Shown one piece after another: positions 10,698 to 42,743 of a DNA stretch of 64,000 nucleotides. The stretch's first letter is position 1. The number at the start of each line of letters is the position of its first letter. The stretch comes from a virus. Lineage: Duplodnaviria > Heunggongvirae > Uroviricota > Caudoviricetes. The DNA lies in the IMG/VR virus record IMGVR_UViG_2778261035_000005; one strand, given 5' to 3'. The translations under genes and the position numbers were made by a program. The notes below the pieces were generated by a model that searched no databases, was not told the DNA's origin, and saw only the letters and a list, made by a program, of their open reading frames with translations.

Positions 10698-10710
10698 CAG
10701 GAGATCAAGG

Positions 10711-11403: not shown

Positions 11404-11404
11404 T

Positions 11405-11656: not shown

Positions 11657-11792
11657 ACCACAAACCGCCAGCGTATTGTTCTGCGATGGAGCTGGGCCTA
11701 TCTATATCAGCAATAATGATGTGATGACCGAAGAAACCGAACGCCAAATCCTTTTTCACAATACGATGGGAGAGAGAGTTTGCGGTTGGTGA
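11577..11792 (+). CDS. Rz1-like o-spanin lipoprotein
   Basis: Starts inside the Rz gene in another frame and extends past it; signal peptide with lipobox ISGC. Confidence 0.5.
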   Translation: MRRAIKYVRKMLLPFIVSCMISGCVIKPQTASVLFCDGAGPIYISNNDVMTEETERQILFHNTMGERVCGW

Positions 11793-11823
11793 TGCGAAGT
11801 TCCCCTCACTTGAGGGGAGTACA

Positions 11824-12345: not shown

Positions 12346-12352
12346 GAGTAAA

Positions 12353-12622
12353 CTACTCCATGCTTTTCAGACGATCAGCAGCTCGTTTCAGCTTGTCGTT
12401 CGGTGCCGGAGGATTGCTTATAGCGTCCATAACCAGATTCCAGGATTCTTCATTCAGAACTAGTCTACGGTGTTGCTCTATAACTTTCACGGCACGTTCA
12501 GATGCACTGCTAACCATAAACTGAGTAATGCTCTGGTTAGACATTGCGGCAGCTTCCTCGATGATGCTTTTATCGTCATCGGTTAATCTCAAATCGATGC
12601 GCTGCTTTTTTAGTGCTGACAT
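12353..12622 (-). CDS. DUF1778-type ribbon-helix-helix antitoxin (TacA/AtaR-like)
   Basis: 89 aa immediately upstream of the GNAT toxin on the same strand; ATG at 12622 preceded by AGGAGG. Confidence 0.75.
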   Translation of the reverse strand: MSALKKQRIDLRLTDDDKSIIEEAAAMSNQSITQFMVSSASERAVKVIEQHRRLVLNEESWNLVMDAISNPPAPNDKLKRAADRLKSME

Positions 12623-12632
12623 GTATTCCTCC

Positions 12633-12660
12633 TGATGGCCGTGATGTAGGAAGGCCATCA
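12633..12660. promoter_or_regulatory. Palindrome TGATGGCC-N12-GGCCATCA, candidate toxin-antitoxin operator
   Basis: Perfect 8-bp inverted arms overlapping the RBS/promoter region of the antitoxin gene. Confidence 0.4.
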
Positions 12661-12890
12661 ATCTCCTCTGTTCAAACTGAGTTTTCGACTCAAAAATTAC
12701 TTTAAAAGGCTATAGCCCATTACGTGTGCATTATCAAATTGTGTACGGCATATCACCGTACTTGTAATATAGAGGTCATTGTTACTTTTTTCAACAGACA
12801 AATACAAGCTATGATTGCCAATTGTTAATCACAACCTACCATTTAACCTTTACACCGCAGCCGTAGGCATTTAGGCTATATCACATATAA

Positions 12891-19892: not shown

Positions 19893-20125
19893 ATTTTTTG
19901 TTCTGTTGATATAGGATGAACAGTTTAGACGCGGCAAGTGTCAAGTGTGCGAAAAATGGTACTTAAATTTAGTTAATATGTCAGCTTTGTTGATTTAGTT
20001 TATGGTCGGTAAAGTTACTAGGAAACTAATAACCATAAGAAATAGTACGTCATTTAATTATTGTGGCACTGCTCGTGTTTTGATTAACTAATACCTGCGA
20101 TAAATATAAATAAAGGGAAGCCAAC

Positions 20126-20539
20126 ATGAGCAAAAATAAGCTGATTTTAACAGGAGCTTTATTGTCTTTGTTTGCTTTAGTGGGGTGTAAGCCTACAGAC
20201 GAGAAGGCTATTGCTCTGGGCCAACAAGCAATTGCGGATGATATGAAAGATCCCACGTCGGTGATGTTTAGGAAAGATAAGTTTGTCAGGACTGATCATG
20301 ACGATGGGAGTGTGACAGGCTTTGTGTGCGGAGAATTGAACGCCAAAAATGGCTTTGGTGCATACGTGGGCTATCACTCATATGTTGTTGAACTCGAAAT
20401 GAAGCCAAAGGGCATGTTTTCGAAAGGGGTGGTATACAAAATCCTATCGAAGTCGTTGGCACCTAATGATCCTCATGACTTACAGCGTTATAAGCAGGTC
20501 TACAGAAAGATGTGCAACAGTGAGGCTGTAGCTCATTAA
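20126..20539 (+). CDS. Lipoprotein of unknown function
   Basis: Signal peptide with lipobox LVGC; AAGGGAAG RBS; hairpin follows at 20546-20572. Confidence 0.65.
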   Translation: MSKNKLILTGALLSLFALVGCKPTDEKAIALGQQAIADDMKDPTSVMFRKDKFVRTDHDDGSVTGFVCGELNAKNGFGAYVGYHSYVVELEMKPKGMFSKGVVYKILSKSLAPNDPHDLQRYKQVYRKMCNSEAVAH

Positions 20540-20664: not shown

Positions 20665-21441
20665 ATGAAAGACGAAATTCAGAAATTGGCCTGTGACATC
20701 ATTGATAAAACAGGTTTAGAAATCAGCGAGGGCAGTCGACTAGACATCATTGGAAAGGCCGTCAATACAGCAATGAATCATATCGCTGCTCGTATGGACG
20801 AGATCCCGCTACCAGGGTTGCCTTATCTGAAAGTTGAGTTACACGTATGGGGCGAACCTTCTTGTGCACGGCGTTCTGCATTAGTTGTTTTTATTAGCAA
20901 AGAAAACCCGCTCAGTCTTAAAGTGCAGGTTGGAGCATGGCTTGATGGCAGAGTGATCTACACAAATACCGTTTTTTGTCTTTCAAACGACGAAACTATT
21001 GAAGCGGCCATTCAAGAAGCAGTTCTAGCAATGCGCAGCAGCGGTTTGATGAAGAATAACTACGAAGAGTACTTGCGTTCGATAAGTGGTGAAAAGACAT
21101 TATCTCTGAAAGCAGATTTCGTTACCCCGAAAAATCTGTTGGAAGTTTTGATTAATAAAGGGGCTAATAGTGCCGTAAATGTAATCAGAGAGAGTGAATA
21201 CGCGTCTCTTTGGGATATGTGCAAAAGCCAGTTGGATCTTGTGCATATCGTTGTTGATGCGGGGAAGGCTTGTGATGGCGTAATGGCGGAATTTGCTGGG
21301 AAGATGGTCAGGATTGCTAACGAATTACCGATGATTAAGCAAGAGGCTAAATCATACGCCACCAATCATGTCACAGAGCTTCTTGCCCCTTATCGCTTAG
21401 AAAGCGATCAGCGCAAGATGATTAGCTGGGGAAGTTGGTAA
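20665..21441 (+). CDS. Hypothetical protein
   Basis: 258-aa ORF with AGGAG RBS; no recognisable motif. Confidence 0.5.
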   Translation: MKDEIQKLACDIIDKTGLEISEGSRLDIIGKAVNTAMNHIAARMDEIPLPGLPYLKVELHVWGEPSCARRSALVVFISKENPLSLKVQVGAWLDGRVIYTNTVFCLSNDETIEAAIQEAVLAMRSSGLMKNNYEEYLRSISGEKTLSLKADFVTPKNLLEVLINKGANSAVNVIRESEYASLWDMCKSQLDLVHIVVDAGKACDGVMAEFAGKMVRIANELPMIKQEAKSYATNHVTELLAPYRLESDQRKMISWGSW

Positions 21442-21508
21442 GCTCTCTGTGTGTCGTTTTTTACGCAAACAATGATAGGTAAGCACAAGATTATTTCTGG
21501 CGGTAATT

Positions 21509-21979
21509 GTGAAAGCTGATTTATCAAAAATCCCTTCTATTTCAGGAAATAACGGTTATTCACTTCGTTGTGAGGAAGTAAAGATAAACGGTGAGTCGGC
21601 ATATTGCAGCTATTCCGTTTGCCAGCACACCATTCTTGCCTTCAAAGAAAACCGTCTTCCTCGAACTTCTTTCCAGTCGTGCGCAACCGCTATTAAAGCA
21701 GGCAAATGCAAGGCGTTAAAAATGATGGTTGAAGAGATTCGTAAAGGAGAATCTCTGTATTTCGAAGATATGACCGCACTCATTAAGGAGGTTGAAGAAC
21801 GGAATAAACAAGCCAGAACTATAAAACGAAAACGTGACAGTGTAACGATTAATAGCATGGTTAAGAAGAGCGCCACATCACAAACAGCGATCACTGACGT
21901 GTATGCGGCGTTGCTTGAAGAAACAACAAAAGAAACACATGAGCAAATCGATCAACATATGGAGGCAAAACAACAATGA
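21509..21979 (+). CDS. Hypothetical protein
   Basis: ORF ending in ATGA overlap with the ligase gene; GTG start uncertain. Confidence 0.4.
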   Translation: MKADLSKIPSISGNNGYSLRCEEVKINGESAYCSYSVCQHTILAFKENRLPRTSFQSCATAIKAGKCKALKMMVEEIRKGESLYFEDMTALIKEVEERNKQARTIKRKRDSVTINSMVKKSATSQTAITDVYAALLEETTKETHEQIDQHMEAKQQ

Positions 21980-23298
21980 AAAAGTTGATCGCACTTAAGC
22001 ATAAGCTGGACGAAATGAAAGCTATGGGAACCAATGCAAAAAAAGAGGCATTGGCCAACATGGATGACTTCGAGCAAAGCATGGTTTCATTGATGCTCAA
22101 CCCTTTCATCCGTTTTGGGGTAAAGAAATACAAAGTGGTAGAGCCGCTTAGTGAGTCCGTCCCAAGTGACGAAAAAGCCATTGATATACTGAATAAGCTG
22201 GCCTCTCGCGAGCTGACGGGGAACGCAGCAATAGCTGCTGTTGAGTCTATCGTGGCGTCAATGTGCGCCGATGGGCAGGACGTCTTCCGTCGTTTCCTCT
22301 TAAAAGATCCGAAAGCTGGCGTTGGGATTAGCCTATGCAACAAGGTTTTTGAAAATCCCATTCCGAAATTCGAGGTGCAGCTGGCGTCACCGTATAAAGA
22401 AAAAGGCGACAAATACCCCTTCAAGCCAAACCCTAAAGCAAAATGGCCGATGATTGGCAGCCTTAAGCTCGATGGTTTGCGAGTAATTTGCGAGGTTATT
22501 GTTGACGAGGAAGAGGTTAACTTCCTTTCTCGTACTGGTAATCCAATCACGTCTCTCGATCACTTAAAGCCAGCCATGCTCGAATTAGGCAAACTTTCAG
22601 GCCACAAACACATCTTCTTCGATGGTGAAGGAACAGCCGGTTCATTTAACCAGTCCGTATCTGCATTGCGCAAAAAGAACGTGCAGGCAATTGGCGCTAT
22701 TTATCATGTTTTCGACTTCTTCCTACCGGAATGGCGAGCACAGGCTAAATCCAAAGAGTATGCAAAGACAGGTATGAAGCTGAAAGAGCGCCTGGCTATG
22801 CTGGTGGCGTTGTTCAAAAACGATCGCAGTGAAGGCTACACACAAGACATTCACCTGCATCCGTTCTACATCATCCATAGCCACGAAGACTTCATCGAAC
22901 GCTTCATGAAACGCCTGGACGATAACGAAGAAGGGGAGATGGGCAAAGATCCGAACTCTGTTTACGAGTTTAAACGTACCCGCAGCTGGTGGAAGTTAAA
23001 AGACGAAGACTCAGAAGATGGTGAAATTATCGACTTTGAGCCGGGCGACCCGGACTCTGGTTTTGCCAACACGCTTGGAAAAATTGTTATTCGCCTTGAA
23101 AACGGTGTGATTGTTCGTGCGAGCGGCATTAAGCATAAATATCTGGACGAGATCTGGAACAACAAAGAGAAGTACCGTGGTCGTATTGTCGAGGTTCATT
23201 GTCACGAGAAAACGCCGGATGGCAGCTTACGCCACCCACGACTGAAATGGCCGCGTTGCTTACGCGATACAGAAGATCGAATCGGAGATAAAGAATGA
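21976..23298 (+). CDS. ATP-dependent DNA ligase
   Basis: Adenylation motif I KxDG present as SLKLDGLR; 440 aa with C-terminal OB-like region. Confidence 0.7.
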   Translation: MKKLIALKHKLDEMKAMGTNAKKEALANMDDFEQSMVSLMLNPFIRFGVKKYKVVEPLSESVPSDEKAIDILNKLASRELTGNAAIAAVESIVASMCADGQDVFRRFLLKDPKAGVGISLCNKVFENPIPKFEVQLASPYKEKGDKYPFKPNPKAKWPMIGSLKLDGLRVICEVIVDEEEVNFLSRTGNPITSLDHLKPAMLELGKLSGHKHIFFDGEGTAGSFNQSVSALRKKNVQAIGAIYHVFDFFLPEWRAQAKSKEYAKTGMKLKERLAMLVALFKNDRSEGYTQDIHLHPFYIIHSHEDFIERFMKRLDDNEEGEMGKDPNSVYEFKRTRSWWKLKDEDSEDGEIIDFEPGDPDSGFANTLGKIVIRLENGVIVRASGIKHKYLDEIWNNKEKYRGRIVEVHCHEKTPDGSLRHPRLKWPRCLRDTEDRIGDKE

Positions 23299-23474
23299 TG
23301 CTCGGCTGGATGATTGCATTTTTAGCAGTTGGTTTTTTCATCGGTATTGTGGTGATGTCCAGTTGCATTAATGACTACATTAAAAACGGTGTTATAGAAA
23401 GACGCGGTCGCATTTATCGCATTGTAGAAATAACCAACACCGTGAAGGAGATTAAGGATGATCGTATTAAGTAA
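23295..23474 (+). CDS. Small membrane protein (59 aa)
   Basis: Not in the ORF track (below 60 aa); single TM helix then basic tail; start overlaps the ligase stop. Confidence 0.4.
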   Translation: MMLGWMIAFLAVGFFIGIVVMSSCINDYIKNGVIERRGRIYRIVEITNTVKEIKDDRIK

Positions 23475-23673
23475 ACGGGAGAAGGAAACACTTTATGAAA
23501 TCAGTAAGTGGCCGGAGTTCCCTGAGTACTGGAAGCCTAAAACGCGGGCTAAGTTAGAGCGGTTAGGGTTGGTTGCAAACGTTTCTGAAACGAGGGGGTC
23601 GGCCAACTACCAGTTAACTGATAAAGGGAAAGTATTGCTACAGCAATTAGTAGAATCAGGAGCGTTAAAATGA
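23458..23673 (+). CDS. Hypothetical small protein (71 aa)
   Basis: ORF chained by overlapping start/stop codons to its neighbours. Confidence 0.4.
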   Translation: MIVLSKREKETLYEISKWPEFPEYWKPKTRAKLERLGLVANVSETRGSANYQLTDKGKVLLQQLVESGALK

Positions 23674-24888: not shown

Positions 24889-24963
24889 GATGGTGTAGCT
24901 CAGCGGTAGAGCAGTTGGCTGTTAACCAACTGGTCGGTGGTTCGAATCCACCCACCATCGCCA
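24889..24963 (+). tRNA. tRNA-Asn (anticodon GUU)
   Basis: Hand-folded cloverleaf: acceptor GATGGTG/CACCATC, D-arm GCTCAGCGGTAGAGC, anticodon loop CTGTTAA, T-loop TTCGAAT, 3-prime CCA. Confidence 0.8.
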
Positions 24964-24965
24964 AT

Positions 24966-25041
24966 GCCGGTTTAGCTCAGTTGGTAGAGCACCTGCCTTG
25001 TAAGCAGGATGTCAGCGGTTCGAATCCGTTAACCGGCACCA
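24966..25041 (+). tRNA. tRNA-Thr (anticodon UGU)
   Basis: Acceptor GCCGGTT/AACCGGC, D-arm GCTCAGTTGGTAGAGC, anticodon loop CTTGTAA, T-loop TTCGAAT, 3-prime CCA. Confidence 0.8.
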
Positions 25042-25254
25042 ACACAACAGGAAAGAGCATTGAGAACCGCCGAGACTGCCCTGTTTGAAGCGTAAGTCCG
25101 TGCAAACGTCATACAGTGCTCTTTTCGTTGTGGTGAATGCGGCTAAGCGCACGCGGGGAAATGGTTATATTGATCCTTTGTGATGACTATTGGCTCCGTC
25201 CACGGTGGATAACCAGCCAAAGGACACCGGGAAGCACCCGGCACCACAACAATT

Positions 25255-25341
25255 GGAGAGTAGGGAGCATGGTGCTCAAGCGGTCTTGAAAACCGTCCCA
25301 TTGCGCAAGCGATGATGGTTCGATTCCATTACTCTCCGCCA
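25255..25341 (+). tRNA. tRNA-Ser (anticodon UGA), type II with long variable arm
   Basis: Acceptor GGAGAGT/ACTCTCC, anticodon loop CTTGAAA, variable-arm hairpin GCGCAAGCG, T-loop TTCGATT, 3-prime CCA. Confidence 0.65.
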
Positions 25342-25525: not shown

Positions 25526-26806
25526 TTAATTAAAACCGAATGAATCAAGTTCTGCTTTTAATTTATCGACCATTTTTTCAACTTCAACCACAATTTCGCC
25601 AATCACCTTTTCTTTGTGTTGATTAGAGCTAAGTTCAAAATAGGCGTTATATAACGCATAACGAGACAGAAAATTTCTAATCTCATTAGCGGGTCTAATG
25701 GTGTAGCCATCGGTTAACACGATATCGGTCTGTCTAGAGTGCTTCTCGTTGAGTTTTATTAGCCGCTTTATCTGTTTTTCATCCTTGAGCACTATCACTT
25801 TGTTAGCTGCAATTTCAAGCTCCCAGCCGACAAAATAACGCAGCGTAGAATTTAATTTAGCCACTTCCTCGGCTGCAATTTCCATTTTCAGCTCAATGTA
25901 GTTTCGCATATGCATAGGTAGGTCATTAAATCTTTGCAGCAAATGTTGTCGGCAGGGGTTGTTGTAAGACCAAAGAACTGCAAACGTAAGCCTATGATAA
26001 CAGCTTATCGCATTGGTATTACAGGCCGAATCACCAACAATCATGCGATCAACATAAAACTCTACGTCTTTTTGGTATTCTTTATTGAATATATCAGCGG
26101 CATAGGTGTCCAGGTAATGAACTTTAGATATTGCATCTTCAAAGAAAAGTTCATTTTCGAAGAAGTTGTATTTGTTCAGGAGACGATAAAGTTTCTTTGC
26201 GTCGTAGGTTTTGCTATTGTCGACATTAAGACCAAAAATAGCAATCAGCAGACTTACTTTTGGACTAATGCTGTTGCGCAGTTGTTCTATGTAAGATCTC
26301 TTTTCACTATCCGCAGATGACGGCAGATAGAAGTCTTTATCTACATAATTTAGAATTAAAATAATGTGGTTAACATACTTAATATAAACAGGGTTTTTTG
26401 TTGCATAGTAATAAACGCCCTTGACGACTTTTATATTCAATTTCAAATTGTACTGACTATCATCCAGTAAGGTTTTGTTAACATCCTCAAGTAATTTATT
26501 ATGCTGTTCAAGTAATATGCCGTACCATTCCTTAAAAGAAGATTTTTTCATTTCAAGAAGCGAAGCCGCCGTCAGCCTGGTCGCTCTCATTGCCGCCTTT
26601 GCACTATGCCTTGCCTCATAAGCGGCCCATGCTGTGGCTAAAAAGGCAAGTGAAGTAGCAAGCGTACCTATAACCTCTACGTTTTCCTTGACGGTATCCC
26701 AGAAAATAATCATCACTGTCCCAAGTATGAGGATTAACAAAACAGGCATTTTATCAGTGTCTTTGGTTAATTTTGAAACTGAATGATACCTAATCGACCA
26801 TACCAT
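25526..26806 (-). CDS. Hypothetical membrane-anchored protein
   Basis: Up to 426 aa; two N-terminal TM helices and a ~350-aa cytoplasmic domain with no motif I can place; AT-rich codon usage; start may be 26749 instead. Confidence 0.55.
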   Translation of the reverse strand: MVWSIRYHSVSKLTKDTDKMPVLLILILGTVMIIFWDTVKENVEVIGTLATSLAFLATAWAAYEARHSAKAAMRATRLTAASLLEMKKSSFKEWYGILLEQHNKLLEDVNKTLLDDSQYNLKLNIKVVKGVYYYATKNPVYIKYVNHIILILNYVDKDFYLPSSADSEKRSYIEQLRNSISPKVSLLIAIFGLNVDNSKTYDAKKLYRLLNKYNFFENELFFEDAISKVHYLDTYAADIFNKEYQKDVEFYVDRMIVGDSACNTNAISCYHRLTFAVLWSYNNPCRQHLLQRFNDLPMHMRNYIELKMEIAAEEVAKLNSTLRYFVGWELEIAANKVIVLKDEKQIKRLIKLNEKHSRQTDIVLTDGYTIRPANEIRNFLSRYALYNAYFELSSNQHKEKVIGEIVVEVEKMVDKLKAELDSFGFN

Positions 26807-28332: not shown

Positions 28333-29436
28333 ATGAAAAATAGCTTTGACAGAGCACGCGCTGCGGAGAACACCTCAAAAGAGGCGATTGAGTATCTCGA
28401 AAGAGCATCTCAAATGCAGGCCGTTATGATCTCCCAGGTCAGCAATGACATGAGATTCTCGGACGCATTCATGTTATTCACTCGCTTATCTCTGCTGATA
28501 ACAAGACGTCGGCCAGAGATCGCTGTTCATTGTATTTTGATACATGTTTTGCCGCACATTGCCGATGTAAAAGTAAGTGATATTAATAGGTTCATGGTGA
28601 ACCAACTGGTCAACCCACTAATACTGGATGGCAAAATTGTTATGGGTCGCCGCGTTTTCTCTCTGATGAAGCAGTTCCTCAGCTGGTGCGCCTTCCAGGG
28701 GATGATCGACGTGTCACCGTTAAACGATATGTCACTTAACAAAGTTGCCGGTGGCGCAAAGCCCACACCTCGCGAGCGGAAGCTAACCGACGCAGAGGTA
28801 TGGGTGTTCTGGAATATATGGGACTACTTCAATGTGTGTGCTGGTACAAAATGGGCGGCCAGGCTATGTCTTGTATCCGCAAGACGACCTGACGAAGTAC
28901 TGCGGGCTAAAAAAAGTGAGTTCAACCTCCAGCGTGGGGTTTGGAATCAAGGCAAGAGAAACAAATCAGCCCGTGAGCATTCTCTGCCTTTAAGCACATT
29001 AATGCGCACATGCATTGAAGAGTTATTCGAATATGGTAAAGGCAGCCAGTGGCTTGTGCCTTCGAATAAAAAAATCGGGAAAGATCTTCCGATGTCTAAA
29101 GTGGCAATAGCCCAGGCATTACGCCGTATCCTGGAACGACCAGAACTGATGGAGCTTGAGCCATTTACACCACGAGATTTGCGTCGTACTGCGCGTAGTT
29201 ACTTCCCAGCATTAGGCATAAGCCAGGAGGTATCACGTAAAATCATGAACCACAGTCTTGAGGGGATAGATCGGGTCTACGACCGGCACGATTATATGGA
29301 CGAGATGCGAGACGCCTTAGAAAGTTTCTCGACGTACATCGCATCAATCGTAGAGCAACCGGATTTAGACGAAATTGACCACAAATTCAAGGGAGATCGT
29401 CTATCGACAGAGCTTATTCGTGTAAATTTTTCATAG
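28333..29436 (+). CDS. Tyrosine-type site-specific recombinase / integrase
   Basis: C-terminal catalytic region with R...H..R...Y arrangement (RRPDE, TPRDLRRTARS, HSLEGIDRVYDRHDY). Confidence 0.7.
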   Translation: MKNSFDRARAAENTSKEAIEYLERASQMQAVMISQVSNDMRFSDAFMLFTRLSLLITRRRPEIAVHCILIHVLPHIADVKVSDINRFMVNQLVNPLILDGKIVMGRRVFSLMKQFLSWCAFQGMIDVSPLNDMSLNKVAGGAKPTPRERKLTDAEVWVFWNIWDYFNVCAGTKWAARLCLVSARRPDEVLRAKKSEFNLQRGVWNQGKRNKSAREHSLPLSTLMRTCIEELFEYGKGSQWLVPSNKKIGKDLPMSKVAIAQALRRILERPELMELEPFTPRDLRRTARSYFPALGISQEVSRKIMNHSLEGIDRVYDRHDYMDEMRDALESFSTYIASIVEQPDLDEIDHKFKGDRLSTELIRVNFS

Positions 29437-29817
29437 AGACTTTATGGCCTCAACAACCTTTTGTGATGCGCCTTTCTCTTTACCGAATCGCTCGTTATAT
29501 GCAGCAAGAACCTGTTTTTCGTCCTCGTTAAGAGGAGCAGTGCCTTCTTTGTATAAAAATGCTGCGAGTTCGGGTTGGCGTTCTTCCAGCACCATCATCA
29601 TAAGACGACTTGGCTCAATACCCAGTGCCAGCGCCAGCGGACGAACCTTATCGATAGGCAAAGGAATTTTGCCGCTTTTAATTAAAGAAAGGTTGTTGGC
29701 GTTTTTATACCCAATTGTTTTGGCTATCTGGGCCTGGCTCATAGGTGAGGATTCAATCAACCCTGCGATAAAAGCAGCGTAGCGACTTTCTATAAATTCA
29801 ATCTTGTTGTCAGACAT
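29431..29817 (-). CDS. XRE-family helix-turn-helix regulator
   Basis: HTH segment MSQAQIAKTIGYKNANNLSLIKSGK; convergent with and overlapping the recombinase 3-prime end. Confidence 0.65.
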   Translation of the reverse strand: MSDNKIEFIESRYAAFIAGLIESSPMSQAQIAKTIGYKNANNLSLIKSGKIPLPIDKVRPLALALGIEPSRLMMMVLEERQPELAAFLYKEGTAPLNEDEKQVLAAYNERFGKEKGASQKVVEAIKSL

Positions 29818-30379: not shown

Positions 30380-32488
30380 ATGTCCAAAAAACGTTCCATC
30401 AAAGAGGTTCAGGACTTCCGTGACAGTGTAAAACGAGTAGTCGCTCTCCTTTCAGGTAAAAACATCCCTGTTGCAGAACGAGGGGACGACGCTTATGTAC
30501 GCTATAACGATGATGGAGAGCCAATTCTCGTAAACATCCCATCAATCCCAGATAACGCAACACCGGCATTGATGAATGCAGTACGCGGATTTCTAGATCA
30601 TGAAGTTGCTCACATTTTGTTTACCGATATTCATGTGTCCAACAAAATGAGAGAAAAAGGACACGTCCCTTCCTGGTCACTATGGAATGCCTTAGAAGAC
30701 GTGTTCATCGAGCGAAAAATGGGGCAGGTCTTTAACGGAACAAGACGTAATCTGATGGCAACTCAGCGCCTGATAATCGAAAAAGTCTTTAAACCAAAGG
30801 CTTCAGAGGCTATTACTTATTGTGGCAAAGATCAGCGCGCGCTTTTTCTAAACTTCTTTCTCTGTCCGGTTGTAAGAGCCTGGGATGGCCAAGCACCGTT
30901 CGTAGATTTCATGGATGAATACTGGCCTGTCATTGAGAAACCAATTTCATTATTAAAAGAACATGGTATCGATGTGGCCGTGCGTAACATGTCTTGCACC
31001 GAGGATTGTTTAAAGGTGGCTGCGACCATAGCTAAGATCCTCAAAGACACAGAAAGTGAAAGCAAAGGTAAGGAGTCAGCTCCGGGAAAAACTCCCGATC
31101 CTTCAGACGCTGACCAAGCGGATTCCTCTGGAGAAAGTAATGAAGACAATGAAGATCACAAGACACATGAGATGCTAGATAACCACATATCTATAGATGA
31201 TGAGTCACACGGTAAGTACATACATGATGATAACGATAGTGATGATTCAGATAATTCTGAATCATCAGAAACAATATTCGATGATACAAAAAATGATAAA
31301 GAGGTATTAGATTCTGATACTTCCAATAGCGCGACGACAGAAGCAACTACCTCGGATCACGAAAAAAGAAAAACGGCAGAAGACGGCTCTTCAGACATTC
31401 CCACTCCGTCCAAAATGAGTCTGGAAGAGGCTTTAGAGGAGCTTGATAGCATGGAAGATGAAGTCGGAGGCATGACAGAAGATGCACTATCCGAAACGAT
31501 TAAAAGCGAGTTAACAGAAAGCTCGAAAAGCGAATACAGGCCATACAATCGCTCATACGACTTCATCGGTTCGATTGATCAGGCAGAAGCCCATATCAAA
31601 CGGCTTATTAAAACATTCTCCGATATTGATTTAGGTGGATATCCAATCAGCCGTTATCGCATCGTTCCTGAAGGCAACCAACTCTTCGACAAATATATTG
31701 AAAAGCATCTTTCGTCAGGTGTTTCGTCGACGCTGGCAAAAGACCTGGAGCGTGCAATTGCAAGCAGAAACAGAGTTCAGTTTATACCGGGCCAGCGTCG
31801 GGGGCGCATTCATGGTTCTAGTATCTACAGATTAGCAATGAATGATGATCGCGTGTTTCGTAAAAAAGAAGAATCTAAGGCCGTTAACGCCTGTGTTCAA
31901 CAAGTGATTGATTTATCAGGTTCAATGAGCGGCGAAACGATTAAACTGGCTCTTGCAAGTGCATATACCATCGCCGATGCGCTTGATCGAATAAATGTTC
32001 CCAACATTATCACCGGCTTCACAACATTTGGTAGTCATATGGCAGCAGGAGAGCTTAAGGCAATCAAGTATGAGTTCTCTCGCTTTGAATCTTTAATGCT
32101 ACCTATCATCAAAAATTGGAATGAAAAGGCAAATTCTCGCGAAGTTCGCTCACGTATGGGGTGCGTAGGCTACACATTCCCACTTCTTAATAACGTGGAT
32201 GGTGAAAGCATAGCCAGCCTTGCATCGTTATTTTCTGGTCGCATGGAGGACAAGAAGATCATGCTTGTTCTAAGCGATGGCGCGCCGTGGGCTGTTGGGA
32301 GAGGTTTTGACGCTCATTTGCGTTCGGTTGCGAAGCAAATTGAAACGCAGACTGACATTGATTTGATGGCAATTGGCATCATGACTGACGCACCGGAGAG
32401 ATTTTACGCAAACCATGCCCTAGTAACGAGCGTTGATAGTCTTGGTTCATCTGTAGTTACTGAACTATCTCGTATCATTTTGAAGTGA
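30380..32488 (+). CDS. CobT-like protein with acidic linker and C-terminal von Willebrand factor A domain
   Basis: 702 aa; long Asp/Glu/Ser-rich low-complexity stretch; MIDAS motif DLSGSMSG in the C-terminal domain. Confidence 0.65.
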   Translation: MSKKRSIKEVQDFRDSVKRVVALLSGKNIPVAERGDDAYVRYNDDGEPILVNIPSIPDNATPALMNAVRGFLDHEVAHILFTDIHVSNKMREKGHVPSWSLWNALEDVFIERKMGQVFNGTRRNLMATQRLIIEKVFKPKASEAITYCGKDQRALFLNFFLCPVVRAWDGQAPFVDFMDEYWPVIEKPISLLKEHGIDVAVRNMSCTEDCLKVAATIAKILKDTESESKGKESAPGKTPDPSDADQADSSGESNEDNEDHKTHEMLDNHISIDDESHGKYIHDDNDSDDSDNSESSETIFDDTKNDKEVLDSDTSNSATTEATTSDHEKRKTAEDGSSDIPTPSKMSLEEALEELDSMEDEVGGMTEDALSETIKSELTESSKSEYRPYNRSYDFIGSIDQAEAHIKRLIKTFSDIDLGGYPISRYRIVPEGNQLFDKYIEKHLSSGVSSTLAKDLERAIASRNRVQFIPGQRRGRIHGSSIYRLAMNDDRVFRKKEESKAVNACVQQVIDLSGSMSGETIKLALASAYTIADALDRINVPNIITGFTTFGSHMAAGELKAIKYEFSRFESLMLPIIKNWNEKANSREVRSRMGCVGYTFPLLNNVDGESIASLASLFSGRMEDKKIMLVLSDGAPWAVGRGFDAHLRSVAKQIETQTDIDLMAIGIMTDAPERFYANHALVTSVDSLGSSVVTELSRIILK

Positions 32489-32583
32489 TTAGAATAGCCT
32501 TAATGATAAGTAATCACTTACGATATTTGATGGTATATTTATATAAGAAGTTGAAAGCTCATTAGAAAACAAAGGAAAAACGC

Positions 32584-33819
32584 ATGACTACTACTGCACT
32601 GCAAAATGAAAAAAATCCTTCTGATTACCTTGTTTGCAAGTGGTGCGGAAAATCATTTCACTATTTTAAGTCCCATGTAGCCAATGGTAATTGCGAGGGC
32701 ATTCCTGAGTCAGTAAAAGATGCCGATCCTGACACCGTACTGAAAATGTACACAACGCAGTTTCCAGATGAGCCAACGCTATCGAAAAAGGCACTTGATG
32801 CAATTCAAGCTAAACGTGCCGAGCAAACAAGCGAAATGGCCAAATCATCTGGCGTGACCAATAGCCCAGGCTATACAGGCACAGTTGAGTACAAGACAGA
32901 TCTGGTCGCAGCTCACGAACTGCTAAATGTAACGGTGAAAGAACTCGGAACAAAACGTGGGACGCCGCTCATGGTTAGCGTCAACGTCAATACGCCGTTT
33001 CCAGAGTTCGTTCCAGAAGTGAAGAAGGGATACGTATATGGCGACTTCGAACTGATCAAAGACATTTTCATGATGCTTGAACTTGGCATACCAGGCTATT
33101 TGTGGGGTCATGCAGGAACAGGCAAATCTTCATTGCCTACACAACTATGTGCTTTGCTCAATCGTCCGTTAATCCGTGCCCAACATACAGCATCAATGGA
33201 AGAGGCTCATGTTACGGGACAAATTCTGGCGCGTGATGGCTCTACGTATTTCGAGCCTGGCTTGCTTGCGCTCGCAATGAAGCATGGCTGGGTTTACCTC
33301 GCGGATGAATACGACTTTGCGTTTCCACAGATTCTTGGCGTGTATCAGCCAGTGCTGGAAGGTGAAGCGTTGGTCATCAAAGAGGCGACTCCAGAATGGC
33401 GTCGCATTACTCCGCATGAACGGTTTGCTTTCATTGGCACTGGCAACACGAACGGATCTGGTGATGAAACCGGCTTGTACCAGGGTACAAACATCCAGAA
33501 CGCCGCTAACTTTTCGCGTTTTGGCATCGTTTCGAATGTGAAATACATGAGCAAAGAGGCAGAGATCAGCATGTTGATAAATGCTGGCATCGTGGATGAA
33601 TACGCTGAAAAGATGGTTAAGTTTGCCGGTATCGTTCGCGATGGATACGAAGAACACCTGATCAGTCAGCCGATTGGCCCTCGTGAACTTTTGTTGTCGG
33701 CCAAGATTGGAATGATGCGAGGCGACTTTGTGACAGGTATTGAGCGTTCTTTCATTAACAAACTCCCTTCAGCTTCTGCGCAAGCGGCACGTGAAGTTGT
33801 TCAAAAAATATTTGGTTAA
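32584..33819 (+). CDS. CobS/MoxR-like AAA+ ATPase
   Basis: Walker A GHAGTGKS, Walker B LADEYD; Cys-rich N-terminal extension; follows the conserved RBS context. Confidence 0.7.
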   Translation: MTTTALQNEKNPSDYLVCKWCGKSFHYFKSHVANGNCEGIPESVKDADPDTVLKMYTTQFPDEPTLSKKALDAIQAKRAEQTSEMAKSSGVTNSPGYTGTVEYKTDLVAAHELLNVTVKELGTKRGTPLMVSVNVNTPFPEFVPEVKKGYVYGDFELIKDIFMMLELGIPGYLWGHAGTGKSSLPTQLCALLNRPLIRAQHTASMEEAHVTGQILARDGSTYFEPGLLALAMKHGWVYLADEYDFAFPQILGVYQPVLEGEALVIKEATPEWRRITPHERFAFIGTGNTNGSGDETGLYQGTNIQNAANFSRFGIVSNVKYMSKEAEISMLINAGIVDEYAEKMVKFAGIVRDGYEEHLISQPIGPRELLLSAKIGMMRGDFVTGIERSFINKLPSASAQAAREVVQKIFG

Positions 33820-33999
33820 TCGTGCGTAAAGGATGTTTCGGCTCTCTTATCGCTGCTTCTGAAACTGGCAAGGCTTGTCTGGTGTGTCCAGACAAGCCCG
33901 ATTGTCACCAATCAGCAAAAGAAGTTGCGATTTCGATGTATGGGAAGTTCGTAGGCTTCCCCAATGACAAAATCAAAAAAACCAGAAAGGTAAAAACAC

Positions 34000-36900
34000 A
34001 TGAAGGCTCTGATGGTTCGAACTGACTTCTCTCTTGGGGAGTCGGCTCTAAAAGCAGAAAACGCGGTGAAGATTGCCAGAGAAGCTGGCTACACCGCTGT
34101 AATTTCGGCAGATAGCATGAATATTGCGAGTGTTATTCCACTACAACGTGCCGCTGGTGACGACATGGCGGTTATTTGTGGTGTGAAACTAAACATTGTT
34201 GATGATCCCACATACGAGCACCGGGCTAAACTTGCTAAAGAGTCTATGGGATGTATGGAATCATTAGAGCGTGGGCGGAACTACTCCTTTACCGCTCTAA
34301 TTAAAAATGAGCAGGGATATCGAGACATCTGCGAACTAATGACGGCGGCCAACACACGAGAACAGTTCTACTTTGTACCGCGTCTCTCGCTCGAACAGTT
34401 GGTTTCTACATATGCCAAAGGCAACATCATCCTGCTCACTGCCGACATCGGTAGCGTGTTCCAACGCAACGATTTTGCAAAAATCATAAGCTCACTGATT
34501 ACAGCGGGTGGAAAAGACAACTTCTATAGTGTGGTTTATCCGCACCCTACCCCATTCTACGACCAGATTAACGTCCGGGCGATGAAAGTCGCCAGCGCAC
34601 TGAAAATAGAGCCAGTAGCGTTCTATCCCGCTTATTACGAATCGATCGACGATGCAGACATTAAAGACATTGCGCACATGGTTACGAACAACATCAAAAT
34701 CGACCAGCCGCATCGTCTGCGTATCCCCCACCAGCGAGATAACGCCGTCAATGGTCGCCGCCATCTCCTTGAGGCGCTGAAAGCCTTCTCCGTTCGCATG
34801 GATGTGCCGGTAACAGCTGCAATGGCCTCAACAACGCAGGATACCATTATCGATGCCTGCACATGGCGCTGGCATGAATTGCCACCAGCACTGCCAAAGA
34901 TGGCAGACGACGAGCCTGCAACGCTGATGAAACTGGCCGTTGCTGGGCTGCGTAAACGTCTTACCACAAAAGAGTTTGGCTACACACCACCGGCTTCTGA
35001 GAACAGGGTTTATGTTGAGCGACTTAAGTACGAAATGGACACGCTTACTCGCCTGGGATTTTGTGGTTACTTCCTGATGGTACGCGATCTGATGAATCAC
35101 AGCCGTGAAACTGGCATTCCTGTCGGGCCTGGTCGTGGTTCCTCCGCTGGCTCTTTGGTGGCATGGTGCATAGGCATAACCAACGTCGACCCTATCCGTC
35201 ACGGTCTTCTGTTTGAACGTTTCATCAACCCTGAGCGTCTCGACTTGCCAGATGCGGACTTGGACTTCAGCCAGGCACGTCGCCATGAGGTGATCGAGTA
35301 TCTGAATGAACGCTACGGCGAAGATTACGTTGCAGGCATTCCGAACTTCACCTACCTGGGCGCGGCCTCTGCACTACGTGACACCGCTCGTATTTATGGT
35401 GTGGAGTCCGCAGATATGGCGGTATCAAAAGAACTGAAGAACGTCGAGGATGATAGCCTTCCATTGGAAGAGCTGCGCGAACAACTGGCAAGCCTCGACA
35501 AATACGCGACAAAATATCCTGATGCATTCAATGCAGCCTGCAAGTTACAAAGCCTTATGCGTGGCTATGGTAGACATGCGGCAGGGATGATCGTAGCAGG
35601 TGTTCCTCTGACAGAACGAACACCGGTTGAACGACGTGGTGACGCGCGTTGTATCGCATTTGACAAGCGTTACTGCGAGGCTATGGGCCTAATTAAGCTG
35701 GACGTACTTGGCCTGGCGACTCTCGATTTGCTCGATAGTGCAAAACGCTACATTAAAGAGAACACAGGTGAGGATATCAATCTTGATGCCATTTCTCTTG
35801 AAGATCGCAAGGTGCTGGATGGTTTTGCTGCTGGGTACACTCAAGGTGTTTTCCAGCTTGAATCAGGCCCAATGCGCAAGCTGCTTAAAGATTTAGGTGG
35901 TGGAATTGAGCCAATGAGCTTTAAAACGGTCGTTGCTACGACTGCGCTCTTCCGGCCGGGGCCAATTCAGTCAGGCATGTTGGATGATTATGTTTCTGTC
36001 GCCAAAGGCTTTATGACGCCGGAATCATTACACCCCGTTCTTGATGAACTTACCGCAGAAACAAATGGCGTGATTCTTTATCAGGAACAGACGATGAACG
36101 CGACTCGATTGCTTGCGGGCTTCACAATGGCTGAAGCTGACGGCGTTCGTAAAGCGATCGGCAAAAAAGACATGGAGAAAATGAAGAGCATGGGTGAGAA
36201 GTTCATCGTTCAGGCTCAAGCTGGCTGGATAGACGTTGAGCTGGAAGATGGCACTACACAGCGCATTCACCGTGCGGAACATTTTAAATGCGAAGACGGA
36301 ACACTGAAAACTGTCGAAGAGGCGCTTGAACACGGCGCAAAACTACCTATAAACGCAGTACGCGTGACAGCGTCACACCCAGGGCTATCAGAGATGAAAG
36401 CGAAGGAGATCTGGACCGCATTCGAAAAAAATGGTGCCTACCAGTTCAACAAATCACACTCTGTTGCTTACTCCTTGATCAGTTATCAATCTATGTGGTT
36501 GAAAACTCATTATCCCGCAGAGTTTTTCGCTGCTGCTCTCACTATTCTTGGCGAAGATAAACACCAGGGGCTGGTTAAAGATGCGCTGACCTATGGTATT
36601 CGCGTATTGCCACCAGACGTTAACGTGTCATCCAACCGAATCGAGATCCGCACGCTTGAAGATGGCAGCCAGGTGCTGTATGCGCCCTTCTCTGCTGTGA
36701 AGGGGTGTTCTGAGAATGGCTGCCAAGCCATCATGAGAGCGCGAGAAAAAGTTGGCGGCAAATTCGAGTCACTGGCGCAATTCGAAGAAGCTGTCGAGAA
36801 ACGTGCCTGTAATAGTCGAGTGCGCGAATCGCTGCAAAAAGTAGGGGCGTTTGCATCCATCGAGCCAGGTAGTCTGCCAGCAACTGATCCAGAGCGCCTA

Positions 36901-37518
36901 CGCGACCAGGCTGAATTGATGGGAAACCTTGTCATAGACGCAGTTAAAGCCTCACGTCCGTTTGAGATGAACCCCAAACGTTCGGCTGAGATTAACGTGC
37001 TCATGACACGGATGGCGGCTGAAATGGGCTTAGGTGATGAACTAATCCGCCCCAGCATTGGTATTAAGCCGAAAATCATGATCATTCTGGACAATGCGAA
37101 CGGCAATGATGCTCGAACCGGTTACTTTATGGAGAACGGATACGACGATTTTAAGGCCAAGCTATTGACGGCTGGAGATTTACGCATGGGCGATCTCTAT
37201 GTCACAGGCGTTTGCAAGAAGGTTAAAGACAAAGAAAAAGACTACACCAAAGACGAGATCGGCCAGTTCACCGACTTTATGCGTGAAGAGATCAATCTGG
37301 TGCGTCCAACCTATGTGCTGACGTGTGGCAGCCGGGCGACATCGCTCTTCAACAACAAGAGCAAACCATCCGACCTGGTTGGACGCAAAGAGTATCTGCC
37401 GGAGCTGGATGTGACTGTTTTCTACGGATTTAACCCGAATATTTTGTACTTTCGCCCAGAGGAAGGCGAAAAGCTGGAAGCAATTCTTGCAGAGGTAGCG
37501 GAGACTATTAGCAAATGA
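34000..37518 (+). CDS. dnaE: DNA polymerase III alpha-type (DnaE-like) replicative polymerase with extra C-terminal domain
   Basis: 1172 aa; PHP-like N-terminus lacking the usual histidines; central region typical of DnaE-type polymerases; last ~300 aa show a UDG family-4-like pattern. Confidence 0.75.
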   Translation: MKALMVRTDFSLGESALKAENAVKIAREAGYTAVISADSMNIASVIPLQRAAGDDMAVICGVKLNIVDDPTYEHRAKLAKESMGCMESLERGRNYSFTALIKNEQGYRDICELMTAANTREQFYFVPRLSLEQLVSTYAKGNIILLTADIGSVFQRNDFAKIISSLITAGGKDNFYSVVYPHPTPFYDQINVRAMKVASALKIEPVAFYPAYYESIDDADIKDIAHMVTNNIKIDQPHRLRIPHQRDNAVNGRRHLLEALKAFSVRMDVPVTAAMASTTQDTIIDACTWRWHELPPALPKMADDEPATLMKLAVAGLRKRLTTKEFGYTPPASENRVYVERLKYEMDTLTRLGFCGYFLMVRDLMNHSRETGIPVGPGRGSSAGSLVAWCIGITNVDPIRHGLLFERFINPERLDLPDADLDFSQARRHEVIEYLNERYGEDYVAGIPNFTYLGAASALRDTARIYGVESADMAVSKELKNVEDDSLPLEELREQLASLDKYATKYPDAFNAACKLQSLMRGYGRHAAGMIVAGVPLTERTPVERRGDARCIAFDKRYCEAMGLIKLDVLGLATLDLLDSAKRYIKENTGEDINLDAISLEDRKVLDGFAAGYTQGVFQLESGPMRKLLKDLGGGIEPMSFKTVVATTALFRPGPIQSGMLDDYVSVAKGFMTPESLHPVLDELTAETNGVILYQEQTMNATRLLAGFTMAEADGVRKAIGKKDMEKMKSMGEKFIVQAQAGWIDVELEDGTTQRIHRAEHFKCEDGTLKTVEEALEHGAKLPINAVRVTASHPGLSEMKAKEIWTAFEKNGAYQFNKSHSVAYSLISYQSMWLKTHYPAEFFAAALTILGEDKHQGLVKDALTYGIRVLPPDVNVSSNRIEIRTLEDGSQVLYAPFSAVKGCSENGCQAIMRAREKVGGKFESLAQFEEAVEKRACNSRVRESLQKVGAFASIEPGSLPATDPERLRDQAELMGNLVIDAVKASRPFEMNPKRSAEINVLMTRMAAEMGLGDELIRPSIGIKPKIMIILDNANGNDARTGYFMENGYDDFKAKLLTAGDLRMGDLYVTGVCKKVKDKEKDYTKDEIGQFTDFMREEINLVRPTYVLTCGSRATSLFNNKSKPSDLVGRKEYLPELDVTVFYGFNPNILYFRPEEGEKLEAILAEVAETISK

Positions 37519-37691: not shown

Positions 37692-38675
37692 CTATCTTGA
37701 ATTAGGGGCTTTCTCTATAATTATTCGATTCAGAATATGATTACGATCACTGTATGGTTCGAAATGTTCTGCAATCGAGTATGAACCGACACTACGTGCG
37801 ACCACATCTTCAAAATATTCAAGGATTTTAGGTAGATACTTTTCATAATTTTGTGAACAAATCGACACTACAGGATCGAATTCTACTAATCGACGCTTTA
37901 CACGTATATGGTTATTTATTTTTTCATATTCATTCATCATAGAGTTCAAGTCTGGTACTACCCGCTCAGGGCTACACAGGTAGGTGCTGCGGTCATACTC
38001 GTCTCCGAATTTATCAAGAGGAACACCTATCTCTAGCAACGTCTTGTTTACTCGCTTTGCAAGCTCAATTATCTCTTTATCTTCTTCTGTAAGCCACATG
38101 TCGACCCACTTTTGTTTGTCTGCCCATTCAGACAGATAATCATCCTTATTGAAAGTTACAGGAGCACATCCAGAGTCACTTCTTAATGCTTTATCCTTTA
38201 TTTTAGAAATTGTTTTTTTATCTAAATGCTTCCAATAAATAGCAGGTTCGTCTAATTCATTATCATCGTGTAGGCATATCAAAACAATTACCACAGGAAA
38301 ATCACAACTTCCCCAATAGGTTATATTTTTATAAGGTATTTGTACGCTTAACCTTCTCTTCATTTTGCGTGAGGTGGTTTTTATCTGAACGCCGATAAAA
38401 AAACCTGTCGAAAGATTATTTTCATATATTTCAACCTGAGCATCCAATCCCATATCAATATCTAGCAATCGACAAGGCCATCTGAAATAACGAGAAATCC
38501 AATAGGCAAACAAGTACTCTCCAGCGTGTCCATCCGCACTGGTTTTCGGATATGTCATACCTTCAGTTTTATTCTTTTCTGCCGCTGGCTTTACAGACTT
38601 AGCTTTTGGGGGGAGGGCTGTTTTTTTAGTCGGCACTGACTTTGTTGCTTTGACTTGTTTGTTAGCCTTATCCAT
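37692..38675 (-). CDS. DUF4365-like protein (predicted PD-(D/E)xK-type fold), candidate defence gene
   Basis: GEYLFAYWISRYFRWPCRLLDIDMGLDAQVEIYENNLSTGFFIGVQIKTTS fits the DUF4365 pattern; Lys-rich N-terminus; ATG at 38675 preferred over the TTG at 38690. Confidence 0.55.
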   Translation of the reverse strand: MDKANKQVKATKSVPTKKTALPPKAKSVKPAAEKNKTEGMTYPKTSADGHAGEYLFAYWISRYFRWPCRLLDIDMGLDAQVEIYENNLSTGFFIGVQIKTTSRKMKRRLSVQIPYKNITYWGSCDFPVVIVLICLHDDNELDEPAIYWKHLDKKTISKIKDKALRSDSGCAPVTFNKDDYLSEWADKQKWVDMWLTEEDKEIIELAKRVNKTLLEIGVPLDKFGDEYDRSTYLCSPERVVPDLNSMMNEYEKINNHIRVKRRLVEFDPVVSICSQNYEKYLPKILEYFEDVVARSVGSYSIAEHFEPYSDRNHILNRIIIEKAPNSR

Positions 38676-38818
38676 TGGTTTTATTCTCAATTTGCTTTGC
38701 TCGGTGTGCCTCCTGATTCTGCACCTTAGCGCCGATACTGTCTACCGCCAATCATGACAGTAAAGCTCTATTTGTTTGATATAATCAGATACACGAAAGT
38801 AAGTTTGAGCATATCAAT

Positions 38819-41669: not shown

Positions 41670-42743
41670 ATGGCAAAAGGAAAATCCGCACTGGCACTTG
41701 CTCTGAAAAAGAAAATCGGTAGCAACGACGAAATTCAGAAAGTAACTCATTGGATTGATACAGGCTTTCCACCGTTAAACAAAGCTATTTCTGGTCGTTA
41801 CGATGGCGGCTTCCCATGTGGTCGTATCGTCGAAGTATTCGGTCCTCCAAGTGCAGGGAAAACGTTCCTTGCAACAGCAGCGATGATCTCCGCTCAAAAA
41901 CAAGATGGTCTGGCGGTATTCCTCGATCATGAAAACAGTTTTGACGTTGGCCTGGCTGTAGCCAATGGCCTGAACGCAGATGAGGATGACGGTCAGTGGG
42001 TATACAAGCAGCCTGACACCTTCGAAGACTCTGTAGAGTTGATCGGCACAATACTTAAATTGGTACGTGATGAAGAGCTTATCCCTGAATCAGCACCTAT
42101 CTGTATCGTGGCTGACTCACTTGCGTCTATGGTTCCGAACTCCAAAGCCGAGAAGTTCGAAAAGATGGCTGAAGGCACTGCCAAAGACAAAGATCAGCTA
42201 AACATGAACGACAATACGGCACTGGCTCGTGCGACAAGTGCGAACTTCCCTACTCTGGCTTTGTGGGCACGCAAATACAACGCCTGCATCATCTTCTTGA
42301 ATCAGGTTCGCACAAAAATCGGTGTAATGTTTGGCGACCCTACTACGTCGCCAGGTGGAGATTCACCGAAGTTCTACGCTTCTGTACGTATCCGTCTTGG
42401 TGCATCGGTGATGAAGGATGGTAAAGAGAAGATCGGCCAGGACGTAGGCGCAGAATGCATCAAAAACAAAGTTGCACCACCGTATGGCAAATGCACCTGG
42501 AAATTCTACTTCGATCCTACTCGTGGCCTCGACGTTATCGAATCGCTCGTCGAGTACATGCTGGAAGAAGGATACCTGCCAAAGAACGCCAGCGGGCGAG
42601 TTGAAATTGGTGACAAGAAATACACCAAATCGCAGATCGTCGAGATGTATCGGGAGAAGCCACTGGCTGAAATCATTGCGGCTTTGCAGGCAATCGACGA
42701 CCGAAGAGCAAAAGACAACCCCACCGAGTCAGTAGAAGAGTAA
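41670..42743 (+). CDS. RecA-like recombinase (UvsX/RecA family)
   Basis: Walker A GPPSAGKT within a RecA-like core; AAAGGAG RBS. Confidence 0.8.
   Translation: MAKGKSALALALKKKIGSNDEIQKVTHWIDTGFPPLNKAISGRYDGGFPCGRIVEVFGPPSAGKTFLATAAMISAQKQDGLAVFLDHENSFDVGLAVANGLNADEDDGQWVYKQPDTFEDSVELIGTILKLVRDEELIPESAPICIVADSLASMVPNSKAEKFEKMAEGTAKDKDQLNMNDNTALARATSANFPTLALWARKYNACIIFLNQVRTKIGVMFGDPTTSPGGDSPKFYASVRIRLGASVMKDGKEKIGQDVGAECIKNKVAPPYGKCTWKFYFDPTRGLDVIESLVEYMLEEGYLPKNASGRVEIGDKKYTKSQIVEMYREKPLAEIIAALQAIDDRRAKDNPTESVEE

Follow-up and report, generated by a model that had tools for sequence, protein, structure and literature searches.

The stretch of DNA analysed here (the window; 64,000 nucleotides of a Caudoviricetes genome, IMG/VR virus record IMGVR_UViG_2778261035_000005) carries, between positions 30380 and 33819, two genes in the same orientation, separated by 95 nt and each preceded by a good Shine-Dalgarno sequence, that encode proteins related to CobT and CobS of the aerobic cobaltochelatase (EC 6.6.1.2; solved structures 9ujv and 9uka), themselves the products of a two-gene cluster. 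Because this region shares 93–96.5% identity with Escherichia phages CMS-2020a, PhiR41_1 and Cyrano and 81% with Salmonella phage SSU5, the window is, by sequence identity, an SSU5-like E. coli phage-plasmid (a 100-kb siphovirus).

The first gene (30380–32488, + strand) encodes a 702-aa protein with the full domain plan of authentic CobT: N-domain, acidic linker, ‘shaft’ and a VWA domain whose metal ion-dependent adhesion site, or MIDAS, is of the D-S-S-N-D type. Pfam CobT matches aa 9–294 (E 6.8e-25) and CobT_C (VWA) aa 492–701 (E 3.3e-83), phrog_1576 is matched over the full length (E 2e-297), and comparison with solved CobT (9uka_G) gave E 7.8e-17, or E 4.4e-65 with the family profile. In the AlphaFold2 model (mean predicted local distance difference test score, pLDDT, of 77.7) the N-domain (aa 1–224; 30380–31051, +) comprises a helix, a three-stranded sheet and a helical bundle, and on its own it matches Pfam CobT with E 9.8e-21. 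The low-complexity linker that follows (aa 225–345; 31052–31414, +) is 30.6% Asp/Glu and 26% Ser/Thr, varies in length and sequence among homologs and is modelled as disordered (pLDDT <50 over aa 231–337); authentic CobT, too, has an acidic disordered linker, of ~100 aa. A segment homologous to the shaft (aa ~458–500; 31751–31879, +) aligns with residues ~365–413 of 9uka_G, the authentic shaft being Q373–R413 (bioRxiv 10.64898/2026.07.21.739949); R458, G471, G475, D489, R491 and F493 in this region are invariant in an alignment of 52 CobT sequences (~30% identity to the query). The VWA domain (aa 504–701; 31889–32482, +) has an intact MIDAS motif, DLSGSMSG (aa 511–518), and the five MIDAS residues (D511, S513, S515, N605 and D633) align with those of authentic CobT and are invariant among homologs. 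Fold searches with the model returned only VWA matches, including solved folds of the NorD/midasin type. A previous reading of this DNA from its letters alone (the sequence-only reading) had described a 702-aa protein with an acidic linker and a C-terminal VWA domain containing DLSGSMSG, a description that these matches support throughout.

The second gene (32584–33819, +) encodes a 411-aa AAA+ ATPase of the MoxR class, extended at its N-terminus (Pfam AAA_5, E 2.2e-15; phrog_249, ‘porphyrin biosynthesis’, E 1.2e-105). The AAA+ core (aa 141–411) matches solved CobS (9ujv_A, E 7.9e-25), with midasin, CbbQ and NorQ as the next matches, and the best Foldseek matches of the model (mean pLDDT 84.4) are NorQ and CbbQ. 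Walker A (GHAGTGKS, aa 175–182; 33106–33129, +), in which G175, G178, G180 and K181 are invariant even when authentic CobS is included, and Walker B (LADEYD, aa 239–244; 33298–33315, +), with invariant D241 and E242, are both present. N288, R312, R352 and R367 are likewise invariant, also against authentic CobS, and the places they occupy in the AAA+ fold make them candidates for sensor-1 and arginine-finger/sensor-2 residues. Invariance of catalytic and MIDAS residues was judged over 30–52 diverse homologs and the authentic proteins. With its Walker motifs, arginines and adjoining MIDAS-VWA gene the locus encodes a MoxR-class AAA+/VWA pair, so that the CobS/MoxR-like ATPase recognised earlier from GHAGTGKS and LADEYD was correctly named, and both predicted folds, VWA and AAA+, were recovered in structural comparison.

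The N-terminal extension of the CobS-like protein (aa 1–140) contains a putative zinc knuckle, C18-x2-C21...H31...C37 (32629–32694, +), and a conserved YxxxFPDAPxxS motif. C18 is invariant in the CobS alignment, conservation of C21 and H31 is 90% or higher, pLDDT here is 77–91, and we infer that the knuckle binds metal. To call this extension Cys-rich, as had been done, was an overstatement: it has three of the four Cys of the whole protein (positions 18, 21, 37 and 189), and the conserved feature is the C-x2-C...H...H/C knuckle. Unlike authentic CobS, the CobS of this phage lineage carries ~130 additional N-terminal aa, and this extension is limited to the DnaE-encoding siphovirus lineage, being absent from CobS of cyanophages, of an Ochrobactrum phage and of ICP2-like phages as well as from the authentic protein.

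The gene pair itself is already known and its novelty is low, since it is annotated in SSU5 and relatives and the cobST two-gene cluster has been published as widespread among tailed viruses (Liu et al. 2021, PMC8651126). Membership of the viral cobST families is clear for phrog_1576 and phrog_249, with the E values given above, and extends to phrog_459 (E 1.1e-7). The SSU5 record names the pair ‘porphyrin biosynthesis protein’, and NCBI protein clusters at 94–99% identity are called ‘cobalamin biosynthesis protein CobT’ or ‘cobaltochelatase CobT-related protein’. In Cyrano (9381–12820) the two genes are named ‘dimethylbenzimidazole phosphoribosyltransferase’ and ‘cobalamin synthetase’, names that belong to the unrelated CobT and CobS enzymes of Salmonella nomenclature and are therefore name-transfer errors; functions of these unrelated enzymes have also been given to viral cobT and cobS in publications (PMC11288001, PMC9983427). 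What remains of interest is what this pair, very widespread among viruses and confused in some annotations with the Salmonella enzymes, actually does.

The HExxH motif of the CobT N-domain

The sequence-only reading missed a zincin-type motif in the N-domain of the CobT-like protein, HExxH (HEVAH, aa 74–78; 30599–30613, +), in which H74, E75, V76 and H78, together with the preceding D73, are invariant in the 52-sequence alignment. It is followed by E106-D107-x3-E111 (30695–30712, +), with E106, D107 and E111 also invariant, and a Glu of this E106-x4-E111 helix may provide the third zinc ligand. Of 375 full-length homologs, 370 keep HExxH, and 364 combine it with the downstream E-x4-E and the MIDAS. 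Among independent loci, 30 of the 33 CobT-like open reading frames (ORFs) adjoining cobS have HExxH, including those of four cyanophages, a T4-like phage of Ochrobactrum, a phage of Rhizobium and an ICP2-like phage of Vibrio. The combination of HExxH and downstream Glu is a near-invariant property of the phage CobT family. In authentic CobT, by contrast, the position of phage D73-H74-E75-V-A-H78 is occupied by D-S-M-A-L-R, D-A-F-A-L-R or D-A-A-A-L-Q (consensus D-S/A-x-A-L-R/Q), and both histidines are absent.

As a scan of viral contigs with the CobS alignment found only close relatives (77–100% identity) and was of no use for diversity, the diverse homologs were drawn from a phage collection, a genome-contig scan and single-protein look-ups. 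In the CobT-like ORF of Pseudomonas phage Nican01 (5844–7925) SEISK replaces HExxH and the MIDAS is retained. Two contigs of Sutterella metagenome-assembled genomes had no HExxH in the CobT-like ORF, again with the MIDAS retained, and no dnaE was detected in range. Phage CobT proteins lacking the motif are possibly pseudo-peptidase variants, in parallel with authentic CobT.

The N-domain of authentic CobT has been called M48C-peptidase-like in fold, and the secondary structure modelled for the phage N-domain matches the published description of CobT_N (bioRxiv 10.64898/2026.07.21.739949). From the motif alone, phage CobT may have peptidase activity. Pfam with the N-domain alone gave one non-significant SprT-like match (E 0.12), and phmmer against the PDB gave nothing real, matches to HLA at E ~0.1 being rejected as chance. 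The cyanophage gene annotated ‘peptidase’ (in syn9, S-BM1, P-TIM40 and P-SSM5) keeps HExxH, E-x4-E and the MIDAS, and this annotation, which has been thought mistaken, may be no mistake. A peptidase domain in such proteins is in part prior art, since Iyer et al. (2021; PMC7824862) described, in T4-like jumbo phages, a MoxR ATPase adjoining a vWA protein ‘fused to a N-terminal metallopeptidase domain’, an arrangement that, compared by description, resembles the one found here.

Conservation of the pair and its replication context

A divergent repressor-like gene (29431–29817, − strand; Pfam HTH_19, phrog_8; ‘putative repressor’ in Cyrano) faces the cobT operon, and cobT-cobS heads this rightward operon as its first pair of large genes. 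The genes that follow are dnaE (DNA polymerase III alpha-like; 34000–37518, +; Pfam PHP, DNA_pol3_alpha, finger and HHH_6), a UvsY-like gene, and genes for a gp32-like single-stranded DNA-binding protein, a 5′-3′ exonuclease and RecA. The pair had been placed directly upstream of dnaE, and dnaE does lie downstream but is not strictly adjacent, as a 67-aa ORF (33822–34025) separates it from cobS. A promoter/terminator scan found no + strand terminator-like site in the cobT-cobS or cobS-dnaE gaps, which is weak evidence (fewer sites were found than in shuffled controls); the sole + strand terminator-like site of the block, at 33082 inside cobS, is a weak match to the consensus.

For synteny, 35 loci were compared, taken from genomes and phages of alpha-, beta- and gammaproteobacteria (CobS identity 34–81%; many on contigs of ~100–115 kb, including one of Yersinia pestis). 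Co-occurrence in relatives, which had been proposed as a check on the pair, was confirmed: in 34 of these loci cobS is immediately preceded by cobT, and in 33 dnaE lies 0–1.8 kb downstream of cobS, while a repressor homolog is found upstream of cobT in many related loci. The genome-contig scan also located the cobT-cobS-dnaE block on ~96–119 kb contigs of very diverse Proteobacteria (Roseospira, Faunimonas, Ancylobacter, Paracoccus, Massilia, Chitinibacter, Sphingomonas, Xenorhabdus and Morganella among them, together with a 108-kb Yersinia pestis contig), a distribution suggesting that the SSU5-like family of ~100-kb phage-plasmids is much wider than the enterobacterial members usually described.

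Outside this lineage the pair is again found among replication genes. In T4-like Kyanoviridae (syn9, S-BM1, P-TIM40 and the Ochrobactrum phage) it lies between gp47/gp46 and gp45/gp44/gp62, and in an ICP2-like podovirus it is three small ORFs upstream of the primase gene. The viral cobST cluster, and the cyanophage ‘cobS’ and ‘peptidase’ genes in particular (PMC8651126; phrog_249 and phrog_459), resemble the present pair in that the two families are close together among replication genes. However, identity to the cyanophage pair is only 15–28%, one or two small ORFs lie between the cyanophage genes, and cyanophage CobS is without the knuckle extension. In cyanophage P-SSM2, cobS has served as a representative ‘early’ gene (PMC6628666, second-hand for timing), and in myocyanophages it belongs to the core genes, with about one copy irrespective of environment or depth (PMC9983427, PMC3037559); among the marine ones it is close to universal. 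Early expression of the pair is presumed for the phage studied here.

Proposed mechanism and alternative explanations

Scores against the cobaltochelatase equivalog models were far below their cut-offs, with 69.9 bits for TIGR01651 (CobT; cut-off 759.05; C-terminal part only) and 83.7 bits for TIGR01650 (CobS; cut-off 558.55). No CobN-like ORF, cobalamin gene or B12-dependent enzyme was found in the 64-kb window, whose ORFs of at least 450 aa encode tail protein J, a tail fibre, the CobT-like protein, DnaE, an SbcC-like protein and class I NrdA. The full annotation of Cyrano (93% identical), which includes NrdA/NrdB, ThyX and DHFR, contains no cobalamin gene or B12-dependent enzyme either, so that the earlier remark that no cobalamin genes lie nearby can be extended to a complete genome. 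The phage gene order, cobT-cobS, is the reverse of that in authentic loci (cobS-cobT in Sinorhizobium, Cereibacter and Pandoraea). In two of these, Sinorhizobium meliloti and Cereibacter azotoformans, cobS is directly preceded by a J-domain (DnaJ-like) gene (at 219–854 and 1–145 of the respective loci), which may hint that a co-chaperone is linked to the motor of the authentic chelatase.

E. coli is not known to have CobN or a de novo corrin pathway. Given the low scores, the lack of CobN and of any cobalamin context, the reversed gene order and the retained HExxH, the pair is probably not a working cobaltochelatase in this E. coli element. The same host properties that make chelation unlikely here, no corrin synthesis and no CobN, also mean that the function of the pair can be tested directly, in a tractable host, and the HExxH motif, lost in the authentic enzyme, is a concrete target for point mutants.

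We consider it probable, though well short of certain, that the pair is a phage version of the CobS/CobT-type AAA+ motor and MIDAS adaptor that acts on a client other than CobN, early in infection and in connection with replication/recombination or host takeover. In authentic CobSTN, CobS is a hexameric motor with the CobT shaft inserted in its ring, CobT_N binds the lid domain of CobS, and CobN has CobT_N on one side and the MIDAS face of CobT_C on the other (bioRxiv 10.64898/2026.07.21.739949). These mechanics are very likely conserved in the phage pair, because the shaft-equivalent segment and the MIDAS residues align with authentic CobT and are invariant in homologs. By homology to CobSTN, NorQD and midasin, the CobS-like protein would form a hexameric ring; as in the solved systems, the shaft of the CobT-like protein would thread into the ring pore, its N-domain would dock on the CobS lid, and the MIDAS would grip an acidic residue of the client, which ATP hydrolysis would then pull or remodel. 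As the usual client, CobN, is absent, this machine would not be a cobalt chelatase in the E. coli element. The sequence-only reading rightly left the substrate open; the client would be another protein of the early lytic cycle, most plausibly one of phage DNA replication/recombination or of host takeover. A similar motor-adaptor-client logic applies to NorQ/NorD, CbbQ/CbbO and midasin, the best solved-fold matches for the ATPase and the VWA/MIDAS parts, but identity to these is 12–22%, their clients are NorB, Rubisco and Rsa4/Ytm1, respectively, and they have no peptidase-like domain.

The CobT-like adaptor may also cleave its client, using HExxH and the downstream Glu. We put forward only tentatively, as a proposal considerably more likely to be wrong than right, that phage CobT is an active zinc metallopeptidase, targeted by its MIDAS and powered by CobS, that cleaves or extracts one specific protein, of the host or related to the replisome, as lytic replication begins. 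If so, the chelatase adaptor CobT found in B12 producers would be a pseudo-protease descended from an older phage-type machine and the core ‘cobS’ of marine cyanophages would be no B12 gene.

Several observations limit the case for a replication-linked motor and, in particular, for a peptidase. Fold searches returned only VWA matches, and in hhalign the N-domain profile and E. coli BepA (M48) could be aligned over the HExxH decapeptide only (probability 0.4%). The pair is kept in Pseudomonas Nickievirus (with SEISK) and in the two Sutterella loci, where HExxH is missing, so any peptidase activity would not be essential to the core function everywhere. Synteny within one phage lineage may mirror general genome conservatism and not functional coupling, the ‘independent’ replication contexts number only three, and the absence of CobN from E. 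coli is textbook knowledge only.

One alternative is that the pair assembles or processes structural proteins of the virion, with the metallopeptidase-vWA protein as co-chaperone of the MoxR ATPase. This role was proposed for the T4-like jumbo phage proteins, by analogy to the MoxR/VWA pair implicated in tail development of Acidianus two-tailed virus (ATV; Iyer et al. 2021, PMC7824862), and it would agree with conservation of HExxH. The context here is instead early and replication-linked, in a 100-kb siphovirus phage-plasmid: the pair is ~20 kb from the structural/lysis block and heads the repressor-facing operon with dnaE, gp32, the exonuclease gene and recA, T4-like phages also place it away from head and tail genes, and cobS is treated as early in P-SSM2. 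A protein made early could still act late, but overall we regard a virion-assembly role as unlikely.

Only slightly less likely would be the standard published explanation, an auxiliary metabolic gene function in which phage CobS and CobT combine with host CobN in a hybrid cobaltochelatase that raises B12 production, for example for a B12-dependent ribonucleotide reductase. It has been proposed for tailed viruses (PMC8651126) and cyanophages (PMC2984593), and the homology to CobS and CobT is real, shaft and MIDAS included. Such a function would require a host with CobN, and here the sub-cut-off scores and the missing host pathway count against it, as does the ribonucleotide reductase of the phage, which is class I. 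HExxH, intact in phage CobT, would have no role in chelation. A core, environment-independent and early cyanophage cobS is, in addition, atypical of a niche-dependent metabolic gene. In its favour, some hosts of related elements (such as Pseudomonas, rhizobia and Paracoccus) make B12 aerobically; against it, Salmonella and Klebsiella rely on the anaerobic pathway with CbiK. Viral ‘cobS’ has reportedly been listed as a vitamin B12 auxiliary metabolic gene since 2005, and the present results suggest that many ‘B12’ assignments in viromes are transfers of name and not of function.

Equally improbable is a counter-defence or conflict module, in which the pair would degrade or remodel a host immunity or stress protein or would be related to the MoxR-vWA ternary nucleoside triphosphate-dependent conflict systems. 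MoxR-vWA cores do occur in such systems (PMC7159879), the first genes after derepression are well placed for host takeover, and a defence-like DUF4365/Aga-REase gene occupies a variable slot just after dnaE. However, the operon has no third, VMAP-type component or effector of the kind found in the MoxR-vWA-VMAP systems (Kaur et al. 2020), the neighbours being a 70-aa ORF, the 67-aa ORF and dnaE, so that the mention of ternary conflict systems in the sequence-only reading is left unsupported. PADLOC gave nothing significant for either protein; a weak match of the CobT-like protein to DrmE (E 6e-4), which starts in the low-complexity linker and extends into the pre-VWA region, was discarded. Both genes also belong to a syntenic core conserved across very different hosts, unlike anti-defence cargo with its typically fast turnover.

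Least probable of all is that the pair is a metal-insertion or maturation chaperone, comparable to NorQD, CoxDE or CbbQO, for a phage enzyme such as ribonucleotide reductase or another replication-associated metalloenzyme, since, although the closest solved relatives after CobST (NorQ/NorD and CbbQ) are all dedicated to enzyme maturation and the phage encodes NrdAB, ThyX and DHFR, these nucleotide-metabolism genes are ~20 kb from the pair and no specific link to any single enzyme was found. Metal-binding PHP domains have an HxH motif. The PHP domain of DnaE was considered as a client for metallation and dropped, because its N-terminus has MVRTDFS where HxH would be expected; the phage also has a separate epsilon-like exonuclease. 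A CobS/CobT-type motor and adaptor with an early client other than CobN remains the reading we prefer.

Neighbouring genes and variable loci

The 67-aa ORF between cobS and dnaE (+ strand; phrog_6337, E 4.4e-47; SSU5_051 in SSU5) is conserved and contains Cys residues (CxxC...CH). It begins with GTG, its ribosome-binding site is weak, and it overlaps the start of dnaE at 34000 by 26 nt. Homologs with 45–92% identity are present in seven related loci, all from enterobacteria in the broad sense; in more distant relatives a sigma-70-like gene and a ~170-aa ORF are found in its place. The C-terminal ~250 aa of DnaE in the window match only phrog_4335 and phrog_13175 (function unassigned), with no Pfam uracil-DNA glycosylase (UDG) match, while DnaE of distant relatives ends in a UDG-family domain (PF03167).

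Elsewhere in the window, a cluster of tRNA-Asn, tRNA-Thr and tRNA-Ser genes (24889–25341, +) is followed by a 426-aa ORF (25526–26806, −) with a predicted N-terminal hydrophobic segment and no PADLOC match. The Cyrano annotation has only a short hypothetical gene beside the tRNA cluster and no counterpart of this ORF.

Between dnaE and the UvsY-like gene the window has a gene for a 332-aa DUF4365 protein (37692–38690, −; E 9.6e-16), which also matches the PADLOC Aga REase-like class I model (E 1.7e-10). The same slot holds a HicA/HicB toxin-antitoxin pair in Cyrano and an excisionase-like gene in SSU5, and because its contents differ in this way it looks like a variable cargo/defence hotspot within the replication block. 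RecA also differs, with 357 aa in the window (41670–42743, +), 779 aa in Cyrano (21309–23648) and 686 aa in an Ectothiorhodospira element (18375–20435), the last with a weak Pfam intein match; from these lengths and this match, a recA intein appears to be present in some close relatives and absent from others.

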